Below the pieces are notes generated by a model that worked only from the letters and a program-made list of their open reading frames with translations, ran no database searches and had not been told where the DNA came from. This document shows, in pieces, positions 32,241-38,518 of a stretch of DNA of 64,000 bases; positions within the stretch are counted from its first letter, which is position 1; each line of letters opens with the position of its first letter. Source of the stretch: a bacterium (lineage in GTDB: Bacteria > Actinomycetota > Acidimicrobiia > Spongiisociales > UBA5794). The position numbers and the translations under genes are program-made. The stretch lies in NCBI GenBank assembly GCA_024226255.1, contig JAAELU010000141.1, positions 23,093 to 87,092 of the forward strand. Reading direction: 5' to 3'.

Positions 32241-32410
32241 AGGACGCGCGGCTCGCGAGGGTTGGGCGTTGCTACCTGATACATGACGGAGTCGCCTCAA
32301 ACATGAACGCCCCCGAAGTGAATCGGGGGCGTTCACTCGTGGCTAGGGGCGGCGCTGTCGTGCAGCCGTGCGCGTGCGGGCCATTCGAAGGGCACCGACC
32401 CCGCCTCGAT

Positions 32411-33808
32411 CTATGCGGTTCGGGCTGCGCGGTCCTCGGCCGACTCGGAGCGGGTGCCGCCGTTGCGGGAGGCGCCGCGGATCGCGTTGGCTGCAGCCAG
32501 AGCGCTCCTTCCGGCCTCGTTGCCGATGCGAGGCAACTTCGCCGACCGTCGTGAGTAGTAGGAGCCCTTGCGGCCGCTCATACCCTCTCCATCGCTTGTC
32601 CCTCCGGAGGAGACCCCCGCTGCTACCGGCTCGCGCTCAGGCACGCTTGCAGGCTCTGCCGGGACGTCAGCCGCTTCCTCGTTTGTCGAGGCCGGCGTCA
32701 TTTCTGCTGTCGACTCATCCTCGGCCGGCGCTTCTTCCGGCACCTCGTCAACGGCGTTCTGCGTGATTGGTGCCTCGGTAGTCTGCGGGGCGTAGGCGGT
32801 TGCTTCGGCCTCAGCCTGAGCCATCGCCTCGGCAACAGCCTTCGCCTCGGCCATGGCTGCTTCCTCGGTTGTTTCGGCCTTGGCGACCTTCTCCGCCTTA
32901 TCTGCGATTGCCTCTACAGGGGCGTCGGCGGACGCTGCTGCCTTGCTGGCGGACTCGAGCTCGGCTGCCGCGGCCTCGGCCGCTTGCTGGATTAGCTCTG
33001 GCCGGACGCTGGGCCGAGCCTTGCGCGCCGGTGGCTCTGTGGCCGACTCAGCGGGAGCCGCGCCGGCAGGGGCTGGTGCTGTTGTGGCCGGAGGAGGCTG
33101 CGGAGGTGTCTCTGTCGCCGTCGGCGTCGGCATCTGGCCGATACCGCCGGTAGCGATCGCCCGTAGCTGGGCGTCGAGGTTGGCGGCCGTGGAGCGCAGC
33201 ACTTCGATCCGTGCCGACAGCTCCGCCTCTTCCGCGTCATAGTTGCTCCGCATTTCGACGAGCGCAGCCTCGTGAGCTGCGAGCAGGCTCGCCGTGTCGG
33301 TCTCCACCGAATTGATCATTTCGACTGCCTCACGACGGGCGGCATCCCGAGTTGCGTCGGCAGCCGCCTCAGCCTTGTCGGCGAGCTCCTTCGCTTCGTC
33401 GCGGGCCATGGTGCTGGTCTCCTCCGCCGACTGGCGAGCATCCGCAACAAGGCGGAATGCTTCCTTCTTCGCCTCGGCGAGGAGTTCGTCAGCCTGCTCC
33501 TTGGAGCGGCTGAGAGTCAGGTCAGCCTTCTCTTGGGAACGACTCAGGGTGGCGTCAGCGTCGCGCTGCGCGTTGACAAGCAGTTCTTCTTTGGTCTTGG
33601 TGGCGGCAACCAGGGTGAGATGAACGGCTTCTTCGCGGCTGTGGGCCTCGGCCAGGTCACGCTCGAGACCGACGTAACGCGCCTCGGCAGTAGCAATCCT
33701 CTCGGCGAGGGCGCGCTGGACTTGCTGCAGATGGGCCGCCACGGCGTTGGGGTCATACCCTCGTCGCACAACAGGGAAATCGGGCTGGCTCGGCTGGTTG
33801 TCTGGCAT
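32411..33808 (-). CDS. DivIVA-domain coiled-coil protein with an Ala/Glu/Pro-rich C-terminal extension
   Basis: N-terminal FPVVRRGYDPNAVAAHLQQV DivIVA motif; long heptad-rich coiled coil; low-complexity tail. Confidence 0.7.
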   Translation of the reverse strand: MPDNQPSQPDFPVVRRGYDPNAVAAHLQQVQRALAERIATAEARYVGLERDLAEAHSREEAVHLTLVAATKTKEELLVNAQRDADATLSRSQEKADLTLSRSKEQADELLAEAKKEAFRLVADARQSAEETSTMARDEAKELADKAEAAADATRDAARREAVEMINSVETDTASLLAAHEAALVEMRSNYDAEEAELSARIEVLRSTAANLDAQLRAIATGGIGQMPTPTATETPPQPPPATTAPAPAGAAPAESATEPPARKARPSVRPELIQQAAEAAAAELESASKAAASADAPVEAIADKAEKVAKAETTEEAAMAEAKAVAEAMAQAEAEATAYAPQTTEAPITQNAVDEVPEEAPAEDESTAEMTPASTNEEAADVPAEPASVPEREPVAAGVSSGGTSDGEGMSGRKGSYYSRRSAKLPRIGNEAGRSALAAANAIRGASRNGGTRSESAEDRAARTA

Positions 33809-33901: not shown

Positions 33902-36298
33902 TTATTCCAAAAGACCTGCGTCGCTGACAAGGGTCAGCGTGTCGATCGTCTTCAGATGTTCGACGACCAGTCGCAGTTCTTCTGCGAAGGCTGTCCTCAG
34001 CTCGACTGTGTCGGGCGCCTGTTTGAACAGTTTTCGATTCTCGGCCAGCTGGATGGCCGCGGCAAACAGCACCTGCGACACCGATTCCGGGGTGTGGATG
34101 CGCCCCTGGAGGGAATACTGCATTCCTAGATCCATCGCACGTTTGCCCAATTCGTCTTTGTCGATCTGTGAGCTGTATGCGTCTGCCTCAATCAGGTCAC
34201 CGATTACGCGGTAGGCCTCCAAGAACGGCCGCAGGACAACGTGCGACAGGAAGGGCTGGAAGGAGCGGAGAACTGCGTCGACTTCGCCGGCCGCCAAGTG
34301 GTCGCGCCACTGGGGGTCGTGAAACATCAGCTCAGCACGTATTTGATCAGCGAACTCCTCGGTCGGAGCGAAGAAGAACTCGAACTTGAGTAGATCGCGC
34401 AATTCCAGCGCTTGCGCAATTACGGCTTCGAGTGAGCTGGCCCCGTTGGAGTTGCGCACGGCAATTACGGCCAGTTCGGTTATTGCGGCGCTAAGGAAGT
34501 GGTGGATGATTGTATTGCGGTAATACGCCGCTGCCAGATGTTGCTCCGGGCCGATCGCATAGACCGTGTCCGTCGCCCCTTCGAAGCGGGTAACCACACC
34601 ATGGTCGGTGAGGTTGTCGAGAGCCAGCTTGACGCGATCCGGATTCTCGAGATGGAGCTTCTCAGTCGTCGGCAGGTCACGCAGTCGCACGTATTCGAGG
34701 TACGGCTCGAGGACGCCCATGACTTCATCGAGCGTCAGGGAACGATTGTTCACGCTCAAAAGCGCCAGTGTTACGAGCGAGATGGGCGTGATTGGTGTGA
34801 CCTCGTTGATGCGGTTGGCAATCTCGAAGGCCAGCTTGGGCACCACCGGAGATCGATGATCCTCAGCGTCCTCCGGCATCTCAGGCTGCTCGGAGAGAAA
34901 CGAACTGAGGGCGAGCGGGGCTCCAAAGCGAAGATGGGCCCCGCCGTAGCGACGTCGCAAGGATCTGACGGTTCGAACCAGCCATCCGACACTCTCGCTC
35001 TGCTTGCGTCCGCCGGCCGCTTCGCCCGCGTAAGAGCCCACATCTTGGATCTGGTCGTATGCGATCGACACTGGGATGAAGATCACGTCATCAACCGAAC
35101 CGCGCGTTGCCGAGTCAACGACATACGCCAGCATCCCGAGTCGAGGTGCCCGTAGTTTGCCGGAGCGGGACCGGCCCCCCTCGAGGTACCACTCCAGAGG
35201 GAATCGTTTCTCGAGCAGGTAGTCGACGTACTCACGGAGCGCGAACTTGTACGGCTCGTTGTCCTTGAACTCACGCCGGATGAAGAACACACCGCTGCGT
35301 CGCAGCAGTGGCCCAATCGGGAAGAAGTTCATGTTGATCCCGCCGGCGGTGTGATTGGGTGGCAGCTCATTCTCGAACAGGACGTACTGCAGGAGCAGAT
35401 GGTCGAAATTCGATTTATGTGATGGGAGAAAGACCAACGGGTACTGCTGGCTCATGGTGTAGAGGGCGCGCAGTTCCTCGTCGTCGTAATTGATGTCGAC
35501 ATAGGCCTTTGTGATCAGCCAGTGGAAGCCTCCAGTGACCAGGTCGATCACGTATGGCGAGTGGGTCGCGGCGATCTCCTTCACGTAGCGGCGAACTCGG
35601 GTCGTCATCTGTTCGTACGAGACGCCGTTATGGGTCGCCAACGGAGTAACGCCGCGGGCGAAGCTGGGCCGCTCAATCAAAGACTCTGTCGGGAATTTGG
35701 GCACCTTGTATCTCGAGCCGCGCAGCTCCCGTTCAGCTCGTTCGAGTGCCAGCCACGCTCGCAGTGCGGTGAATTCGCCGAGACCGTTGCCGGCGAGGTG
35801 GCCACGCGGATCGGTCTCCCACAGCTCACGAAGATCGGCTGCCCGCCCTGTCTGGCCCATGACGATGCGCAGCCGTTCCGGATGCATCCGGTACGTCACA
35901 TGCTGGCGGAACGGATCGGGATCGCGGGGATCGCCGAAGATCAGCATGTCGCGCAGCCCGACGGTGCGCTTGCCGTCTCGTTTCGATGTCGGGAGCCATG
36001 CAACCCGGATCGGCACGAGAAGGGGGTTCTCGCCGGTGGCGGCGGTGAAAGCTTCGAGGCGACCGTCGAATCTGCGCCGTCGTCTGCGGCGGCGTGTCTG
36101 GGGCAATGTCGCCATCTGGACGTGCCCGGGCGAGATATCGGGAGGTCGATGGCGCTCGATCCATCCCTCGAGCACCTTGCGCTCCAAACCGCCGCTCTCC
36201 TCAATGAGGAAGACGATCGGTCCGTCGCCTTCAGGCCACAACGGCTCATCGATCAGGGCGAGACCTGTGTAGGCGGAGTCATGCTTCTGGGCGGTCAC
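33902..36298 (-). CDS. plsB: glycerol-3-phosphate acyltransferase PlsB
   Basis: HxxxxD acyltransferase motif SHKSNFDHLLL; FIRREF; EGGRSRSGKLRAPRLGML; about 800 aa, typical of PlsB. Confidence 0.85.
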   Translation of the reverse strand: MTAQKHDSAYTGLALIDEPLWPEGDGPIVFLIEESGGLERKVLEGWIERHRPPDISPGHVQMATLPQTRRRRRRRRFDGRLEAFTAATGENPLLVPIRVAWLPTSKRDGKRTVGLRDMLIFGDPRDPDPFRQHVTYRMHPERLRIVMGQTGRAADLRELWETDPRGHLAGNGLGEFTALRAWLALERAERELRGSRYKVPKFPTESLIERPSFARGVTPLATHNGVSYEQMTTRVRRYVKEIAATHSPYVIDLVTGGFHWLITKAYVDINYDDEELRALYTMSQQYPLVFLPSHKSNFDHLLLQYVLFENELPPNHTAGGINMNFFPIGPLLRRSGVFFIRREFKDNEPYKFALREYVDYLLEKRFPLEWYLEGGRSRSGKLRAPRLGMLAYVVDSATRGSVDDVIFIPVSIAYDQIQDVGSYAGEAAGGRKQSESVGWLVRTVRSLRRRYGGAHLRFGAPLALSSFLSEQPEMPEDAEDHRSPVVPKLAFEIANRINEVTPITPISLVTLALLSVNNRSLTLDEVMGVLEPYLEYVRLRDLPTTEKLHLENPDRVKLALDNLTDHGVVTRFEGATDTVYAIGPEQHLAAAYYRNTIIHHFLSAAITELAVIAVRNSNGASSLEAVIAQALELRDLLKFEFFFAPTEEFADQIRAELMFHDPQWRDHLAAGEVDAVLRSFQPFLSHVVLRPFLEAYRVIGDLIEADAYSSQIDKDELGKRAMDLGMQYSLQGRIHTPESVSQVLFAAAIQLAENRKLFKQAPDTVELRTAFAEELRLVVEHLKTIDTLTLVSDAGLLE

Positions 36299-36340
36299 GG
36301 GAGTGATTGTAAATGGACCCGATGTGAGAATGTGCGAGGC

Positions 36341-36470
36341 CAGTTGTCAGTTACCAGTTGTCAGTTACCAGTTGTCAGTTACCAGTTGTCAGTTATCAGT
36401 TGTCGGTCGCCAGTTGCCGGCTACCGGTTACAAGATTTCGACTGGTAACTGATAACTGGCAACTCATAAC
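36341..36470. repeat. Tandem 14-bp repeat (CAGTTGT CAGTTAC, about 6 units) followed by an inverted copy, giving a large imperfect hairpin, 43-170 bp upstream of the plsB start
   Basis: cagttgtcagttac is repeated contiguously at 36341-36424 with decay in the last two units. 36441-36470 is the reverse complement of about two units. Confidence 0.85.
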
Positions 36471-36543
36471 TCTCTGACTCTGGCATGGCGCGAATGAGGC
36501 CCGGCACAACCGGGCCTCATCTTCATTGATGTGAGTTGTTGTG

Positions 36544-36786
36544 TCAGTCGCCGCCGAGGAGGCCACCGAGGGCGTCCTTGGCCTTGTCGAGAAGGCCGCC
36601 GCCATCGTCATCGCCGTCATCGCCGCCATCGTCATCGCCACCGCCGAGCAGCTTGCTGACCTGATCGCCGAGAGGCCCGGGGAGCTTGTCACCGAGGAAG
36701 TCCGCTACTCCGGATACGACCGACTTGATCTGATCGACACCGAGTCCCGTCTTTTCCTGAAGTTGCTTGATCAGTTCGTCCACCAT
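36544..36786 (-). CDS. small acidic Gly/Asp-rich protein (80 aa)
   Basis: MVDELIKQLQEKTGLGVDQIKSVVSGVADFLGDKLPG... followed by GGGDDDGGDDGDDDGGG. Codon usage is coding-like; the antisense ORF 36541-36822 is rejected. Confidence 0.55.
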   Translation of the reverse strand: MVDELIKQLQEKTGLGVDQIKSVVSGVADFLGDKLPGPLGDQVSKLLGGGDDDGGDDGDDDGGGLLDKAKDALGGLLGGD

Positions 36787-36845
36787 GCCTCCTGTAACTG
36801 GCTGGAATCACCGCCATTGTAAAGGAAGGAACTGGATCGGATTCC

Positions 36846-36880
36846 AAGTAGGCAAGTAGCAAGTAGCCAGTAGCAAGTAC
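36846..36880. repeat. Tandem 7/8-bp repeat (CAAGTAG)n upstream of the small acidic protein gene
   Basis: caagtag-g-caagtag-caagtag-c-cagtag-caagtac. Confidence 0.7.
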
Positions 36881-36956
36881 CGCCACATCGGGAGGTTCGA
36901 CATGCGCCGTAGTGCGTCTTGCGGTTGCCCTCGCGCTCGCTTCCCGAGGTTCTTGT

Positions 36957-36990
36957 TACGGGATACGTGATACGGGATACGTGATACGAG
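36957..36990. repeat. Tandem 14-bp repeat (TACGGGATACGTGA) x2.4
   Basis: tacgggatacgtga tacgggatacgtga tacgag. Confidence 0.7.
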
Positions 36991-37339
36991 TCCAAGGGGA
37001 AGCTCGTCGATCGCCCAATTGCCGCCTAACCGCGGCTCCAACTAGTTCGTGTTGGCTGACAACGGAATGCGGCGGGGTGCGGCCGGCAATGCGGATGACC
37101 AAGCTGGCCGGGCCGGAGCTTCTTCCGGTCCGAAGAGCTCAGCGAGGCTGAGGCCGCGACCCAAGTCGTGCCGGCAGCGTTCTTCGCAACGCCGGTATGG
37201 ATCTCTTACCACTTCGTAGTTCTGTGCGACCATGTATTACTAGTCGGCACTAGACACCTAACTAGTAAGCACTTTGCGTGGTTTTTCGCGTTCTTGAATC
37301 TTGCCTATTCATCCTCGATGAGGCCTTCCACTACTGACA

Positions 37340-38518
37340 GTGGTGAGTTATGTTCAGCCGATGAAGTCCTCGCCTTTCAAGCCTTTGGCGCTCGGATTGG
37401 TTGTGCTGGCAACGATGCTCGGGGCACCCCAACCGGAAGCTTCCGCGGCGGGAGCACCAGCTTGGTATGCCAAACCGTCCGTGACCGGTGATCTACGAAC
37501 GATCGATGTCGCTCTTGGCGATTCCCTGCAAGCTGCGTTCGATGCCGCTCTGCCGGGTGACACGATCCTGCTGGCGCCGGGTCGGCATGAGATTCAGGGC
37601 AACCTGGTCCTTCGCAATTCAGGCACGCCAGAGGCGTGGATCAGGATCACATCGCCGTCTGGGGGGAACCGCGCCGTGATCGATCTCAATGGCAGCGGTG
37701 AGTTCCGCATTTCCGGGTCGTACGTGCAGTTGCGCCGGGTGAGGATCCGACACGGTGGTGGCAACAATCTGCACATTGCCCCCGAGGCTTCGGACCAAAC
37801 CCACGTCATAGTCAGCCGAGTGAACATTCGAGCGCTCGAGTGGGGTCCCGGAGCCGCCATCAAGATCAATCGAAACGGCGTTCACGACGTGCGGCGCATC
37901 TATCTCATCGACAACGACGTCTCGGAGGCGCTGTCCAACGCCGTGATCGATGGCGTCGGCGTTCGTAAGGTCGTCGTGCGATCCAACCGGATCCATGACA
38001 ATGCAGTTGGTAGCCACGGCATCTTCTTCAAGGGCGGCTCGTCGAAGATCCTCATCGAGCGCAACGAGGTCTACGGGATTCGGCAGAATGCCGCCGTCCA
38101 GCTCGGCGGCAATACCGGCCCCAACTTCTTCGATCCGCTGTGGCCGCAATGGGAGGGTGTTGGTCAGGTGGTGCGCAACAACCATGTCTTTGACTTCGAT
38201 GACTCGGCGTTCGAGATTCGTGGAGTGCTCCGGGGCAAGATCTACAGGAACACTGTGGAGACTCAGTCGAGCTTCGCGATCTTCCGGCTGCAATGTGGCG
38301 AGGTGGCTGGCGGAGGTGGAACTTCAGGCAACGAAGCGATCGTCATCCGTGACAACACGATCGAGGCAACCGGTGACCCCCAGTATGCCCGCAATGACTG
38401 CGGCCCGGTTGACATCCGGTTTGCCCGCCAGACGTGGATCGGAACGTTCCACAACTCTGGAAGTGCCGGTCCCGACGTACCGACGTTCCCGTTGCCGAGC
38501 GATACGGTGATTCCCTAG
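37340..38518 (+). CDS. secreted right-handed parallel beta-helix repeat protein (pectate-lyase/NosD-like)
   Basis: Signal peptide MKSSPFKPLALGLVVLATMLGAPQPEASAAG; repeated beta-helix rungs (HIAPEASDQTHVIVSRVNI, VVVRSNRIHDNAVGSHGIFF, ILIERNEVYG). The start may be ATG 37361. Confidence 0.65.
   Translation: MVSYVQPMKSSPFKPLALGLVVLATMLGAPQPEASAAGAPAWYAKPSVTGDLRTIDVALGDSLQAAFDAALPGDTILLAPGRHEIQGNLVLRNSGTPEAWIRITSPSGGNRAVIDLNGSGEFRISGSYVQLRRVRIRHGGGNNLHIAPEASDQTHVIVSRVNIRALEWGPGAAIKINRNGVHDVRRIYLIDNDVSEALSNAVIDGVGVRKVVVRSNRIHDNAVGSHGIFFKGGSSKILIERNEVYGIRQNAAVQLGGNTGPNFFDPLWPQWEGVGQVVRNNHVFDFDDSAFEIRGVLRGKIYRNTVETQSSFAIFRLQCGEVAGGGGTSGNEAIVIRDNTIEATGDPQYARNDCGPVDIRFARQTWIGTFHNSGSAGPDVPTFPLPSDTVIP

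Follow-up and report, generated by a model that had tools for sequence, protein, structure and literature searches.

Four tandem arrays of heptameric units cluster in a stretch of 650 bp upstream of plsB in the window, the 64-kb stretch of DNA from an uncultured Acidimicrobiia genome (a short-read MAG) that was analyzed here. Probably, these arrays are heptanucleotide simple-sequence repeats (SSRs) of the known "long SSR" class that have grown by slippage and exert at most graded effects in cis. The locus is a new example of this known, still unexplained class of heptamer repeats and no new system. Three arrays and an inverted copy of one of them had been reported in a preliminary description, and all were located at these sites by Tandem Repeats Finder and a search for inverted repeats. 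All four arrays, inverted arm included, are built head-to-tail, have periods of 7 and 14 in Tandem Repeats Finder and are given here without strand.

Array 1, the long arm of a foldback, occupies positions 36340-36424 as determined with Tandem Repeats Finder, a repeat search and the sequence itself. Tandem Repeats Finder delimited it to 36340-36416 with a period of 14, 92% matches, a score of 126 and 5.5 copies, slightly fewer than the six initially counted. The core consists of four perfect copies of CCAGTTGTCAGTTA (36340-36395), followed by about two decayed 14-mers up to about position 36424; on the minus strand, which is the plsB-sense strand, 36340-36395 reads (CAACTGG TAACTGA) x4. The inverted arm (36441-36471; Tandem Repeats Finder, inverted-repeat search, folds) comprises 4.4 heptamers with the sequence ACTGGTA ACTGATA ACTGGCA ACTCATA ACT, and these 31 nt are 87% complementary to several registers of array 1. 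Both arms, which are unequal with 12 units versus 4.4, are joined by a spacer or loop at 36425-36440 (sequence, inverted repeats, fold), again without strand. A hairpin with a stem of about 30 bp had been described 43-170 bp upstream of plsB; the span has to be corrected to 42-173 bp upstream of the plsB start. The predicted folding energy of the foldback was -58.2 kcal/mol (z = -6.5) as RNA and -28.4 kcal/mol (z = -5.6) as DNA. An Rfam search at the gathering score returned no family, and the sole Rfam match at E ≤ 1 was a chance microRNA hairpin.

Array 2 (36845-36879) was identified by Tandem Repeats Finder as CAAGTAG x4.9 with 89% matches, one indel and a score of 54; its minus strand reads GTACTTG CTACTGG CTACTTG CTACTTG C CTACTTG. 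Its true period is 7 and the 14-nt superperiod is weak. Array 3 (36957-36988), identified by the same program as TACGGGATACGTGA x2.3, consists of (TACGGGA TACGTGA) x2.3 with 100% matches and a score of 64; its units on the minus strand are GTATCCC and GTATCAC. The G+C content of the arrays ranges from 0.39 to 0.50 as compared to 0.63 for the window, in line with the earlier statement that they are AT-richer.

The window was subjected to 50 first-order Markov shuffles and the best period-7/14 score was taken from them; it did not exceed 51, with a mean of 35. With a score of 126, array 1 is hence far beyond chance. Arrays 2 and 3, scoring 54 and 64, individually exceed the shuffle maximum of 51 marginally, and both are located less than 650 bp from array 1. 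This small excess, together with the short-read MAG from which the window derives, could be taken to mean that the arrays arose by chance or as an artefact during assembly. We consider such an origin next to negligible in view of the score of array 1, the clustering of four arrays, each of them shorter than a typical sequencing read, and the presence of the same kind of array in independent assemblies of relatives and in hundreds of other contigs.

No further period-7 array with at least three copies was found elsewhere in the 64-kb window. The 7-mers had also been proposed as targets for a search of the remaining genome; carried out within the window, this search returned scattered singletons outside the arrays and no second occurrence of the array 1 14-mer. 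About 20 other spacers of at least 150 bp in the window are free of such arrays, and the clustering of four arrays within 650 bp is an observation that counts against slippage as their origin.

The gene plsB (33902-36298, minus strand) encodes glycerol-3-phosphate 1-O-acyltransferase as shown by NCBIfam NF002886 (764.7 bits versus a cutoff of 721), and its product is 100% identical to protein P0001. A putative -10 hexamer TACAAT, recognized by conservation (36306-36311, minus strand), precedes the GTG start by exactly 7 nt. The arrangement TACAAT/TACACT, 7 nt and GTG/ATG is kept in the window and in loci L001, L002/L003, L004, L005 and L127-130, which suggests that the plsB mRNA is leaderless. 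Array 1 starts 28 nt upstream of this putative -10 hexamer. It would lie upstream of the putative -35 position and not in the core promoter, a correction to the earlier description. With a leaderless transcript, array 1 would also be outside the plsB mRNA.

In most of the clade, plsB adjoins a gene for a small acidic Gly/Asp-rich protein (36544-36786, minus strand; 80 aa, pI 4.05) for which no Pfam or NCBIfam family was found. The sequence upstream of this gene contains a ribosome-binding site GGAGG (36788-36792, minus strand) and a putative -10 hexamer TACAAT (36816-36821, minus strand), which is kept as TACAAT, TAGAAT or TAGTAT in the window, L001, L002, L131 and L252; L252 is nearly identical throughout the block between the -35 position and the start codon. 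Array 2 lies immediately next to the expected -35 hexamer (36839-36844), and array 3 is located 135 nt upstream of the putative -10 hexamer. A consensus promoter scan found nothing, so both promoter assignments derive from conservation only. A G+C-rich hairpin of 11 bp (36494-36520, minus strand; sequence, fold) without a U-tract is located 24 nt past the stop codon of the small gene. It is probably the terminator of this gene; L002 and L252 also have a hairpin at this place. Upstream, the spacer containing arrays 2 and 3 is bounded by an unannotated ORF of 63 aa (37042-37233, minus strand), which showed 76-86% amino acid identity in eight clade loci by tblastn and is absent from the protein collection searched. 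An ORF of 49 aa running through array 1 (36303-36452, plus strand) was not considered coding.

These positions bear on the initial suggestion that the arrays constitute a slipped-strand contingency (phase-variation) switch for one of two genes, plsB or that of the small protein. The contingency loci known so far serve mainly to control genes for surface components or restriction-modification systems in host-adapted bacteria; plsB is a housekeeping gene of phospholipid synthesis. Four perfect 14-mers should indeed be prone to slippage, relatives differ in copy number and sequence, and heptamer precedents exist in promoters and 5' UTRs (PMC12721329; bioRxiv 10.1101/2021.05.14.444153). However, none of the arrays lies in a coding region or in a putative -35/-10 spacer; arrays 1 and 2 are located upstream of the putative -35 positions, array 3 is even more distant, the repeat units are imperfect, and array 1 would not be part of the apparently leaderless plsB mRNA. 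We regard a switch of this kind as very improbable, and on/off switching by the arrays is unlikely in any case.

Copy number, which the preliminary description had put forward for comparison among related strains, was not identical. Seven relatives with 72-81% PlsB identity (L001, L002, L004, L005, L126, L127 and L131) lack these three arrays, and L252 carries different short versions. L252 is a closer relative with 78-86% DNA identity in this region, represented by a short contig without plsB. Short, diverged runs of heptamers are present in it where array 2 and the short arm of array 1 lie in the window, and array 3 is missing. The run at the array 2 site reads GTACTTC GTACTTG ATACTTG ATACCCG; the TACTTG core of array 2 is kept there beside the nearly invariant promoter block, a retention which could reflect constraint. 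Array 3 sits in about 150 bp missing from L252, L001 and L002, and array 1 with its inverted arm makes the locus about 130 bp longer than in L001 and L002. Units of the GTATC type also occur in arrays of L004, L126 and L131. In the sister loci L126 and L131 (89% PlsB identity), arrays occupy corresponding sites but differ in unit and copy number. Other clade members possess related heptamer arrays at other intergenic sites, which indicates fast turnover. Three heptamer families recur at non-orthologous sites of the clade, namely GTATCNN, CTACTKG/TACTTGA and CAGTTRY.

The arrays were compared to known repeat systems. MIRU units measure 40-100 bp and are found between genes of operons. MIRU-VNTRs are also intergenic, actinobacterial tandem repeats with variable copy number, but the unit here is 7 or 14 bp, and MIRU-VNTRs were therefore rejected; of the earlier proposal that the arrays are of VNTR type, the part concerning simple-sequence repeats which differ between related genomes holds, and the family does not. 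SARP sites consist of heptamers every 11 nt on one helix face, overlapping the -35 region; operators of this type were rejected because the heptamers in the window are contiguous with a 7-nt period. REPs are palindromic units of 20-40 nt spread by a dedicated transposase, and no REP-type family was seen in the window. Like the foldback described here, REP/BIME and REPIN elements are intergenic hairpin-forming inverted pairs, often past gene 3' ends (PMC3116915), whereas the arrays of the window are tandem 7-mers. G-quadruplex heptamers of the GGGNATC type (PMC4692102), which comprise at least four consecutive G-tracts, were rejected as well, with two GGG tracts in array 3 and none in arrays 1 and 2. 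The same applies to replication iterons: the neighbours are ordinary chromosomal genes, no replication gene is among them and cumulative GC skew shows no turn between 34000 and 39500.

The closest agreement was found with long heptanucleotide SSRs. According to Mrazek 2007, as reported in PMC4679880 and PMC4692102, heptanucleotides are the most abundant among the long simple repeats, a class over-represented in many bacterial genomes, and a slippage bias of the polymerase was put forward as their cause; these two papers also describe such repeats as commoner in free-living bacteria of high G+C content including Actinobacteria. Position preferences of heptamer repeats are known (PMC4692102), and Acidimicrobiia are not named in this cited literature (PMC4679880, PMC4692102). 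Long heptanucleotide SSRs likewise consist of head-to-tail 7-nt units, are intergenic and occur with several unrelated units per genome; they are scattered genome-wide, whereas the window contains one cluster in 64 kb. As in this class, whose units measure 5-11 nt, the arrays have a tandem unit (7 nt), are longer than expected by chance, arrays 2 and 3 marginally so, and differ in presence or copy number between related genomes, as found by comparison across species of the clade.

A more specific likeness exists to the TAACTGA direct repeats of marine Beggiatoaceae, Cyanobacteria and Bacteroidetes (MacGregor 2015, PMC4679880). Array 1 contains exact TAACTGA alternating with the related CAACTGG, as in the "split" sets of PMC4679880, and is also oriented "forward" towards the downstream gene. 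The TAACTGA repeats end about 1 nt before the start codon and overlap the ribosome-binding region, whereas array 1 ends 42 nt before the plsB GTG, and a translational role is not supported since the putative promoter lies in between. Furthermore, just one inverted repeat was reported in the genome of BOGUAY (Beggiatoaceae), whereas array 1 has an inverted partner, and the hosts belong to other phyla. Many TAACTGA sets are dispersed over a genome in that class; the available 64 kb contain one such locus. Cyanobacterial heptanucleotides likewise include several heptamer families in both orientations near promoters and start codons, as described for Nostoc with a modest effect on promoter activity for recO (bioRxiv 10.1101/2022.06.06.494920) and for the tandem STRR heptanucleotides of Calothrix, which are mentioned in PMC4692102. 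The host lineage differs, the density in the window is far lower, and the units are different from those of the window arrays.

Two systems provide examples of graded effects. In Haemophilus influenzae, the (ATCTTTC)n repeat of hmw1A forms one arm of a 5'-UTR hairpin processed by RNase III, and repeat number tunes expression gradually (PMC12721329). Array 1 is also one arm of a long, here predicted, hairpin, whose other arm is itself a heptamer array. The hmw1A repeat is transcribed in the 5' UTR, whereas the conserved -10 hexamer of plsB lies downstream of array 1, which would consequently be transcribed only by read-through. The TTTTGAT heptads of Vibrio cholerae ctxAB vary in copy number among strains, their copy number is linked to promoter activity, and they are known binding sites of ToxT, ToxR and H-NS (bioRxiv 10.1101/2021.05.14.444153). 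They form tandem heptamers in an AT-rich promoter, as does array 2 at the -35 position; their sequences are unrelated to the window arrays, for which no binder is known.

Additionally, metagenomic and viral contigs were surveyed as two independent samples by pattern scans for CAGTTNN arrays. At least 120 loci were obtained from each, those of the metagenomic sample amounting to 723 kb. The metagenomic loci contained 334 period-7 arrays as compared to 19 arrays of period 6 and 25 of period 8, and 189 of these 334 were not the array searched for. In the viral loci, 491 period-7 arrays were opposed to 64 of period 6 and 42 of period 8. Among neighbouring arrays, 40 of 94 metagenomic and 57 of 118 viral cases were related inverted pairs, i.e. 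foldbacks (about 40-50%). The polarity of CAGTT-core foldbacks was strongly biased with 25:3 in metagenomic and 30:2 in viral loci, 55:5 together. Based on crude gene calls, the AACTG-forward orientation was preferred upstream of gene starts (43:15 metagenomic, 35:28 viral), which agrees with PMC4679880. Unit variants were mirrored across both arms in some of the foldbacks listed, for example in L038 and L050, as judged by eye. Outside crude ORF calls, 84% of the arrays were found, and divergent spacers were depleted. Orthologous pairs, from which copy-number change could have been measured directly, were sought among the metagenomic loci (at least 120), and none of these had flanks in common. 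The folding energies of the foldbacks showed no bias between the sense and the antisense strand (11 versus 12), and selection at the RNA level was rejected for this reason.

The extra 130 bp relative to L001 and L002 and the 31-nt arms with their 87% complementarity could indicate that array 1 and its inverted arm are a mobile foldback or MITE-like element with heptamer terminal inverted repeats, which was inserted upstream of plsB. Such arrays are abundant in viral contigs, and a similar foldback (78.6% over 112 bp) exists in L123 in an unrelated, phage-like context. However, the flanks contain no target-site duplication, no second copy was found in the 64-kb window or the clade loci, no transposase is associated, the arms differ in length, and the loop sequences are unrelated between loci. 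The heptamer-like sequence at the short-arm site of L252 furthermore points to growth in place. A mobile element is thus quite improbable. A BLAST search of the whole spacer against phage records gave no match. It was also considered whether arrays 2 and 3 could be what is left of an old foldback with arms that have diverged. This candidate was rejected: the units match at 5 of 7 positions when inverted, which by estimate would occur by chance in about 9% of cases, and the two arrays form no joint hairpin (z = -0.1). In order and orientation they resemble both arms of the L131 foldback, which is suggestive only.

Alternatively, the heptamers may serve as iterated targets of at least one protein that binds DNA or RNA in a sequence-specific manner, as part of a lineage-wide regulatory or architectural network, as MacGregor proposed for the TAACTGA repeats (PMC4679880). 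Upstream of promoters or start codons, head-to-head arrays would then recruit protein filaments or dimers in opposite orientations. Related heptamer families at several non-orthologous clade sites, the foldback polarity in both sets of contigs, the AACTG-forward bias before gene starts and the TACTTG core kept in L252 are consistent with this proposal, as is the position of arrays 1 and 2, which lie directly at -35 positions, comparable to the ToxT/H-NS heptads of ctxAB (bioRxiv 10.1101/2021.05.14.444153). Nevertheless, three different heptamers within 650 bp would demand several proteins or a loosely specific one, a 7-nt spacing places successive sites on different helix faces, most relatives lack the arrays despite conserved promoters, and a candidate binding protein is not known. 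Moreover, with one cluster in 64 kb no network is visible in the window. On balance, binding sites appear a doubtful explanation.

We favor the reading as slippage-grown long SSRs, according to which the arrays would have grown by slipped-strand mispairing in a 7-nt register within spacer DNA that is specific to the lineage. After the emergence of two unit variants, growth would have proceeded in a 14-nt register and given a higher-order repeat, with its four perfect copies on one side and the decayed ones on the other. Together with its inverted arm, array 1 would represent a foldback of a widespread kind, (CAGTTNN)n / (NNAACTG)n, whose second arm probably originated by inverted duplication. 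The arrays would fill the slack DNA that separates the end of a gene from the core promoter of the gene that follows; array 1 would do so at -42 to -173 of the probably leaderless plsB, past the 3' hairpin of the small gene. Their effect, if any, would be graded, length-dependent and in cis, exerted by an AT-rich upstream tract beside the -35 position. In addition, the foldback hairpin would stop, or be cleaved in, read-through transcripts of the small gene and thereby insulate the leaderless plsB start. Selection acting on the arrays for such a graded role appears less likely than not; failing that, a bias towards slippage by 7 nt would have produced them as tolerated by-products.

Two observations are not accounted for by slippage alone: the repeated appearance of a small set of heptamer families at non-orthologous sites of the clade, and the 55:5 polarity of CAGTT-core foldbacks. 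It is conceivable, albeit unlikely, that head-to-head foldbacks of the form (CAGTTNN)n - loop - (NNAACTG)n are a distinct, widespread intergenic element of bacteria and phages, which would be maintained in a directional manner, by a dedicated protein that binds or processes it or by a mechanism of copying, and not by neutral slippage. The observations behind such an element are the fixed polarity in 55 of 60 scored CAGTT-core pairs, the unit variants that look mirrored across the arms of some of the listed pairs, as judged by eye, and the lineage-specific heptamer families. The foldback upstream of plsB would in that case be the first example noted in Acidimicrobiia, and the GTATCNN, TACTTGA and CAGTTRY arrays of the clade would be local families of the element.

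Heptamer repeats have been known since 2007 as the commonest longer simple repeats in many bacteria. The locus analyzed here adds an example from an uncultured marine-type Acidimicrobiia lineage together with its geometry relative to two conserved putative promoters, and comparative evidence at this locus indicates fast array turnover. The survey is of greater use than the locus itself, as it reveals a great abundance of arrays of this kind in contigs of metagenomic and viral origin. Should a protein or a mechanism of copying be behind the CAGTT/AACTG polarity, this polarity would provide a handle on the question why the unit is seven nucleotides long. For the biology of plsB, probably little follows from the arrays, at most an upstream context that can be tuned.

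Tandem Repeats Finder (TRF) was used for array detection and reported four arrays near plsB, which are heptanucleotide simple repeats and in part belong to the TAACTGA type. Array 1 (36340-36416) has a period of 14 with 5.5 copies, 92% matches and a score of 126; its inverted partner (36441-36471) comprises 4.4 heptamers. Array 2 (36845-36879) consists of 4.9 copies of CAAGTAG and array 3 (36957-36988) of 2.3 perfect copies of TACGGGATACGTGA. Three arrays and an inverted copy forming a hairpin, as given in the preliminary description, were thus recovered by TRF and by predicted RNA and DNA folds; the 14-mer repeat of array 1 was likewise found, but with 5.5 instead of six copies. The 14-mers 1-4 of array 1 are identical, and decay is seen in the units closest to the inverted arm. 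This arm of 31 nt showed 87% complementarity to several array 1 registers, and the predicted folding energies of the region are -58.2 kcal/mol (RNA; z = -6.5) and -28.4 kcal/mol (DNA; z = -5.6). In line with the earlier description, the arrays are AT-rich (39-50% G+C vs 63% for the window).

When the window was shuffled 50 times, no period-7/14 score exceeded 51, so that array 1 with its 126 is far outside chance expectation. Arrays 2 and 3 individually barely exceed the shuffle best, and both are located within 650 bp of array 1. An origin of the arrays by chance or artefact is hardly credible. A search for the 7-mers elsewhere had been proposed; in the 64 kb window they occur outside the arrays as ordinary singletons, and no further period-7 array with at least three copies was detected.

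The window belongs to an uncultured MAG (record MCP3973565.1) whose nearest relatives are Acidimicrobiia/Acidimicrobiaceae MAGs. The gene order on the minus strand is Zincin_1, an oppositely oriented beta-helix gene, a conserved 63-aa ORF, a gene encoding an acidic, Gly/Asp-rich 80-aa protein (pI 4.05), plsB (NCBIfam NF002886, 764.7 bits) and a DivIVA-like gene. In six lineages (the window at 36296-36311, and the related-clade loci L001, L002, L004, L005, and L127), TACAAT or TACACT is located exactly 7 nt 5' of the GTG or ATG start of plsB, and no conserved Shine-Dalgarno or ribosome-binding site precedes plsB in these six. The plsB mRNA hence appears to be leaderless, which we infer from conservation because a consensus promoter scan gave no match. 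Array 1 and its inverted arm would then extend from -42 to -173, just past the -35 position. Upstream of them, a G+C-rich hairpin of 11 bp (36494-36520) follows the small gene. L126 and L131 instead carry a conserved 13-bp hairpin shortly upstream of TTATGCT.

A TACAAT/TAGAAT box (36816-36821) is conserved upstream of the small gene, which also possesses a GGAGG site. The first base of array 2 adjoins the expected -35 hexamer of this gene; another 77 bp upstream comes array 3, which in turn is preceded by the 63-aa ORF. In the small-gene 5' leader, GCCAGTTACAGG (36791-36802) adjoins the GGAGG site and contains CAGTTAC, a heptamer of array 1, oriented as in the short arm; hence, it is complementary to the long-arm units. 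This leader sequence is identical in L252 and is not found in L001 and L002; its match to array 1 may be a coincidence.

The comparison with relatives suggested earlier was carried out. Seven loci with a PlsB identity of 72-81% to the window (L001, L002, L004, L005, L126, L127, and L131) have kept the genes and the -10 boxes and lack arrays 1-3; the two array-bearing spacers measure about 130 bp and 180 bp less in L001 and L002 than in the window. The closest relative found for this region, L252 (78-86% DNA identity), is a contig of 2.6 kb that does not extend to plsB. At the array 2 site it carries a brief run of diverged heptamers (GTACTTC GTACTTG ATACTTG ATACCCG), split by TRF into two of 2.3-2.4 copies each, and at the site of the array 1 short arm a period-7 run of 2.9 copies; array 3 and about 150 bp surrounding it are missing, and this is also where the contig stops. 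The sisters L126 and L131 (89% PlsB identity to each other) have their array sites in common and differ in unit sequence and copy number. The arrays therefore arise, change and vanish quickly. A slipped-strand on/off switch, as had been considered, was not supported and is very improbable; the likeness to MIRU loci was rejected in favor of heptanucleotide simple repeats.

Further clade members have heptamer arrays in intergenic spacers other than these two, and the arrays tend to adjoin gene 3' ends. Foldbacks, i.e. neighboring inverted arrays able to pair, directly follow the beta-helix gene in L126 (CGTATCT x4 / GATACCG x3) and L131 (GGTATCC... / CTACTGG...), in L004 and L126 arrays come directly after the terminator of the DivIVA gene, and L131 has a 14-nt-period run between the small gene and plsB. 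The beta-helix gene itself (37340-38518, plus strand), flanked by Zincin_1 and the 63-aa ORF, encodes a right-handed, Pel9A-like protein; it is present in most clade members and absent from L001 and L005, and heptamer arrays come after its 3' end in L004, L126, and L131, but not in the window.

Public metagenome contigs and viral contigs were scanned with CAGTTNN x4, each yielding at least 120 loci; such arrays abound in both. The metagenome matches listed (723 kb, contigs of 21-70% G+C) contained 334 period-7 arrays of at least three copies, whereas periods 6 and 8 were represented by 19 and 25; 189 of the 334 were other than the array searched for. For the viral matches listed, the numbers were 491, 64, and 42. 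Of the neighboring array pairs among the matches listed, 40/94 (metagenome) and 57/118 (viral) were related inverted pairs, separated by a median of about 20 nt. In some of these, e.g. L038 and L050, one arm visibly mirrors the unit variants of the other. A mobile foldback as the source of array 1 and its inverted arm is improbable. According to crude gene calls on the matches listed, 84% of the arrays are non-coding, divergent spacers are depleted, and AACTG-forward is favored upstream of gene starts (43:15 metagenome, 35:28 viral). Many listed foldbacks span the entire intergenic spacer, 3-13 nt from each flanking gene. One much like array 1 (L123, 2857-2954; AGTTATC x4.4, then AACTGAC x8.7) occupies the full spacer between two genes whose own neighbors resemble phage structural genes, and stops 8 nt short of the next start codon.

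Among the scored CAGTT/AACTG foldbacks listed, the CAGTT arm came first in 55/60 (25/28 metagenome, 30/32 viral), and the window foldback has the same polarity. Listed foldbacks with other cores showed no polarity when scored by the T-rich arm, and sense and antisense RNA stability showed no bias (11 vs 12). This polarity would suit iterated protein-binding sites, the main rival reading, as would the recurrence in the clade of the unit families GTATCNN, CTACTKG/TACTTGA and CAGTTRY, which exceeds the expectation from independent slippage, albeit with weak statistics. However, a single locus has three different units and most relatives lack the arrays, and we regard binding sites as unlikely. 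Identities as SARP operators and as G-quadruplex repeats were rejected.

Among long simple repeats, heptanucleotides are the most common, above all in bacteria that are free-living and high in G+C, Actinobacteria included, and a 7-nt polymerase-slippage bias was proposed as the cause (Mrazek and colleagues 2007, as summarised in PMC4679880 and PMC4692102). In Beggiatoaceae, Cyanobacteria, and Bacteroidetes, MacGregor reported direct repeats of TAACTGA between genes, mainly forward with a start codon immediately downstream (PMC4679880). Array 1 reads TAACTGA alternating with CAACTGG on the plsB-sense strand. GGGAATC-type heptamers have position preferences alike (Rehm et al., PMC4692102). Functional precedents are few: Nostoc heptamers alter recO promoter activity (bioRxiv 10.1101/2022.06.06.494920), ctxAB TTTTGAT heptads, differing in number among strains, are bound by ToxT and H-NS (bioRxiv 10.1101/2021.05.14.444153), and hmw1A (ATCTTTC)n forms one arm of a 5'-UTR hairpin cut by RNase III (PMC12721329). 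We found no earlier report of heptanucleotide simple repeats in the lineage of the window.

Further conserved elements are located nearby. The DivIVA-like gene (stop codon at 32411) is immediately followed by a block of roughly 70 nt (32300-32410, minus strand) with 84-96% identity in 7/7 clade loci, far over the intergenic background. RNAalifold predicted a long hairpin whose apex (about 40 nt) is invariant and whose basal stem includes four pairs with both partners changed; it is followed by a covarying terminator hairpin. Rfam gave no match at E ≤ 1, and the block is a candidate for a conserved 3'-UTR element or small RNA. The 63-aa ORF (37042-37233, minus strand; MVAQNYEVVRDPYRRCEERCRHDLGRGLSLAELFG...) has 76-86% identity in eight clade loci, matches no Pfam or NCBIfam family, and its exact sequence is absent from the protein collection. 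The inverted repeat TTACTAGT-N16-ACTAGTAA (37237-37268) preceding it, recognisable in relatives too, looks like an operator.

We propose that the arrays would have grown by slippage, first in a 7-nt and later in a 14-nt register, in unconstrained spacer DNA between a terminator and the following core promoter, and that the second arm of array 1 would derive from inverted duplication. The effect, if any, may be that of a length-variable AT-rich tract upstream and of a hairpin which stops read-through transcripts or is cut in them, shielding the leaderless plsB start. This proposal as a whole is fairly probable; within it, selection for a role is possible rather than probable. The locus itself gives no opening as to why 7-mers dominate, but the polarity of the surveyed foldbacks might.
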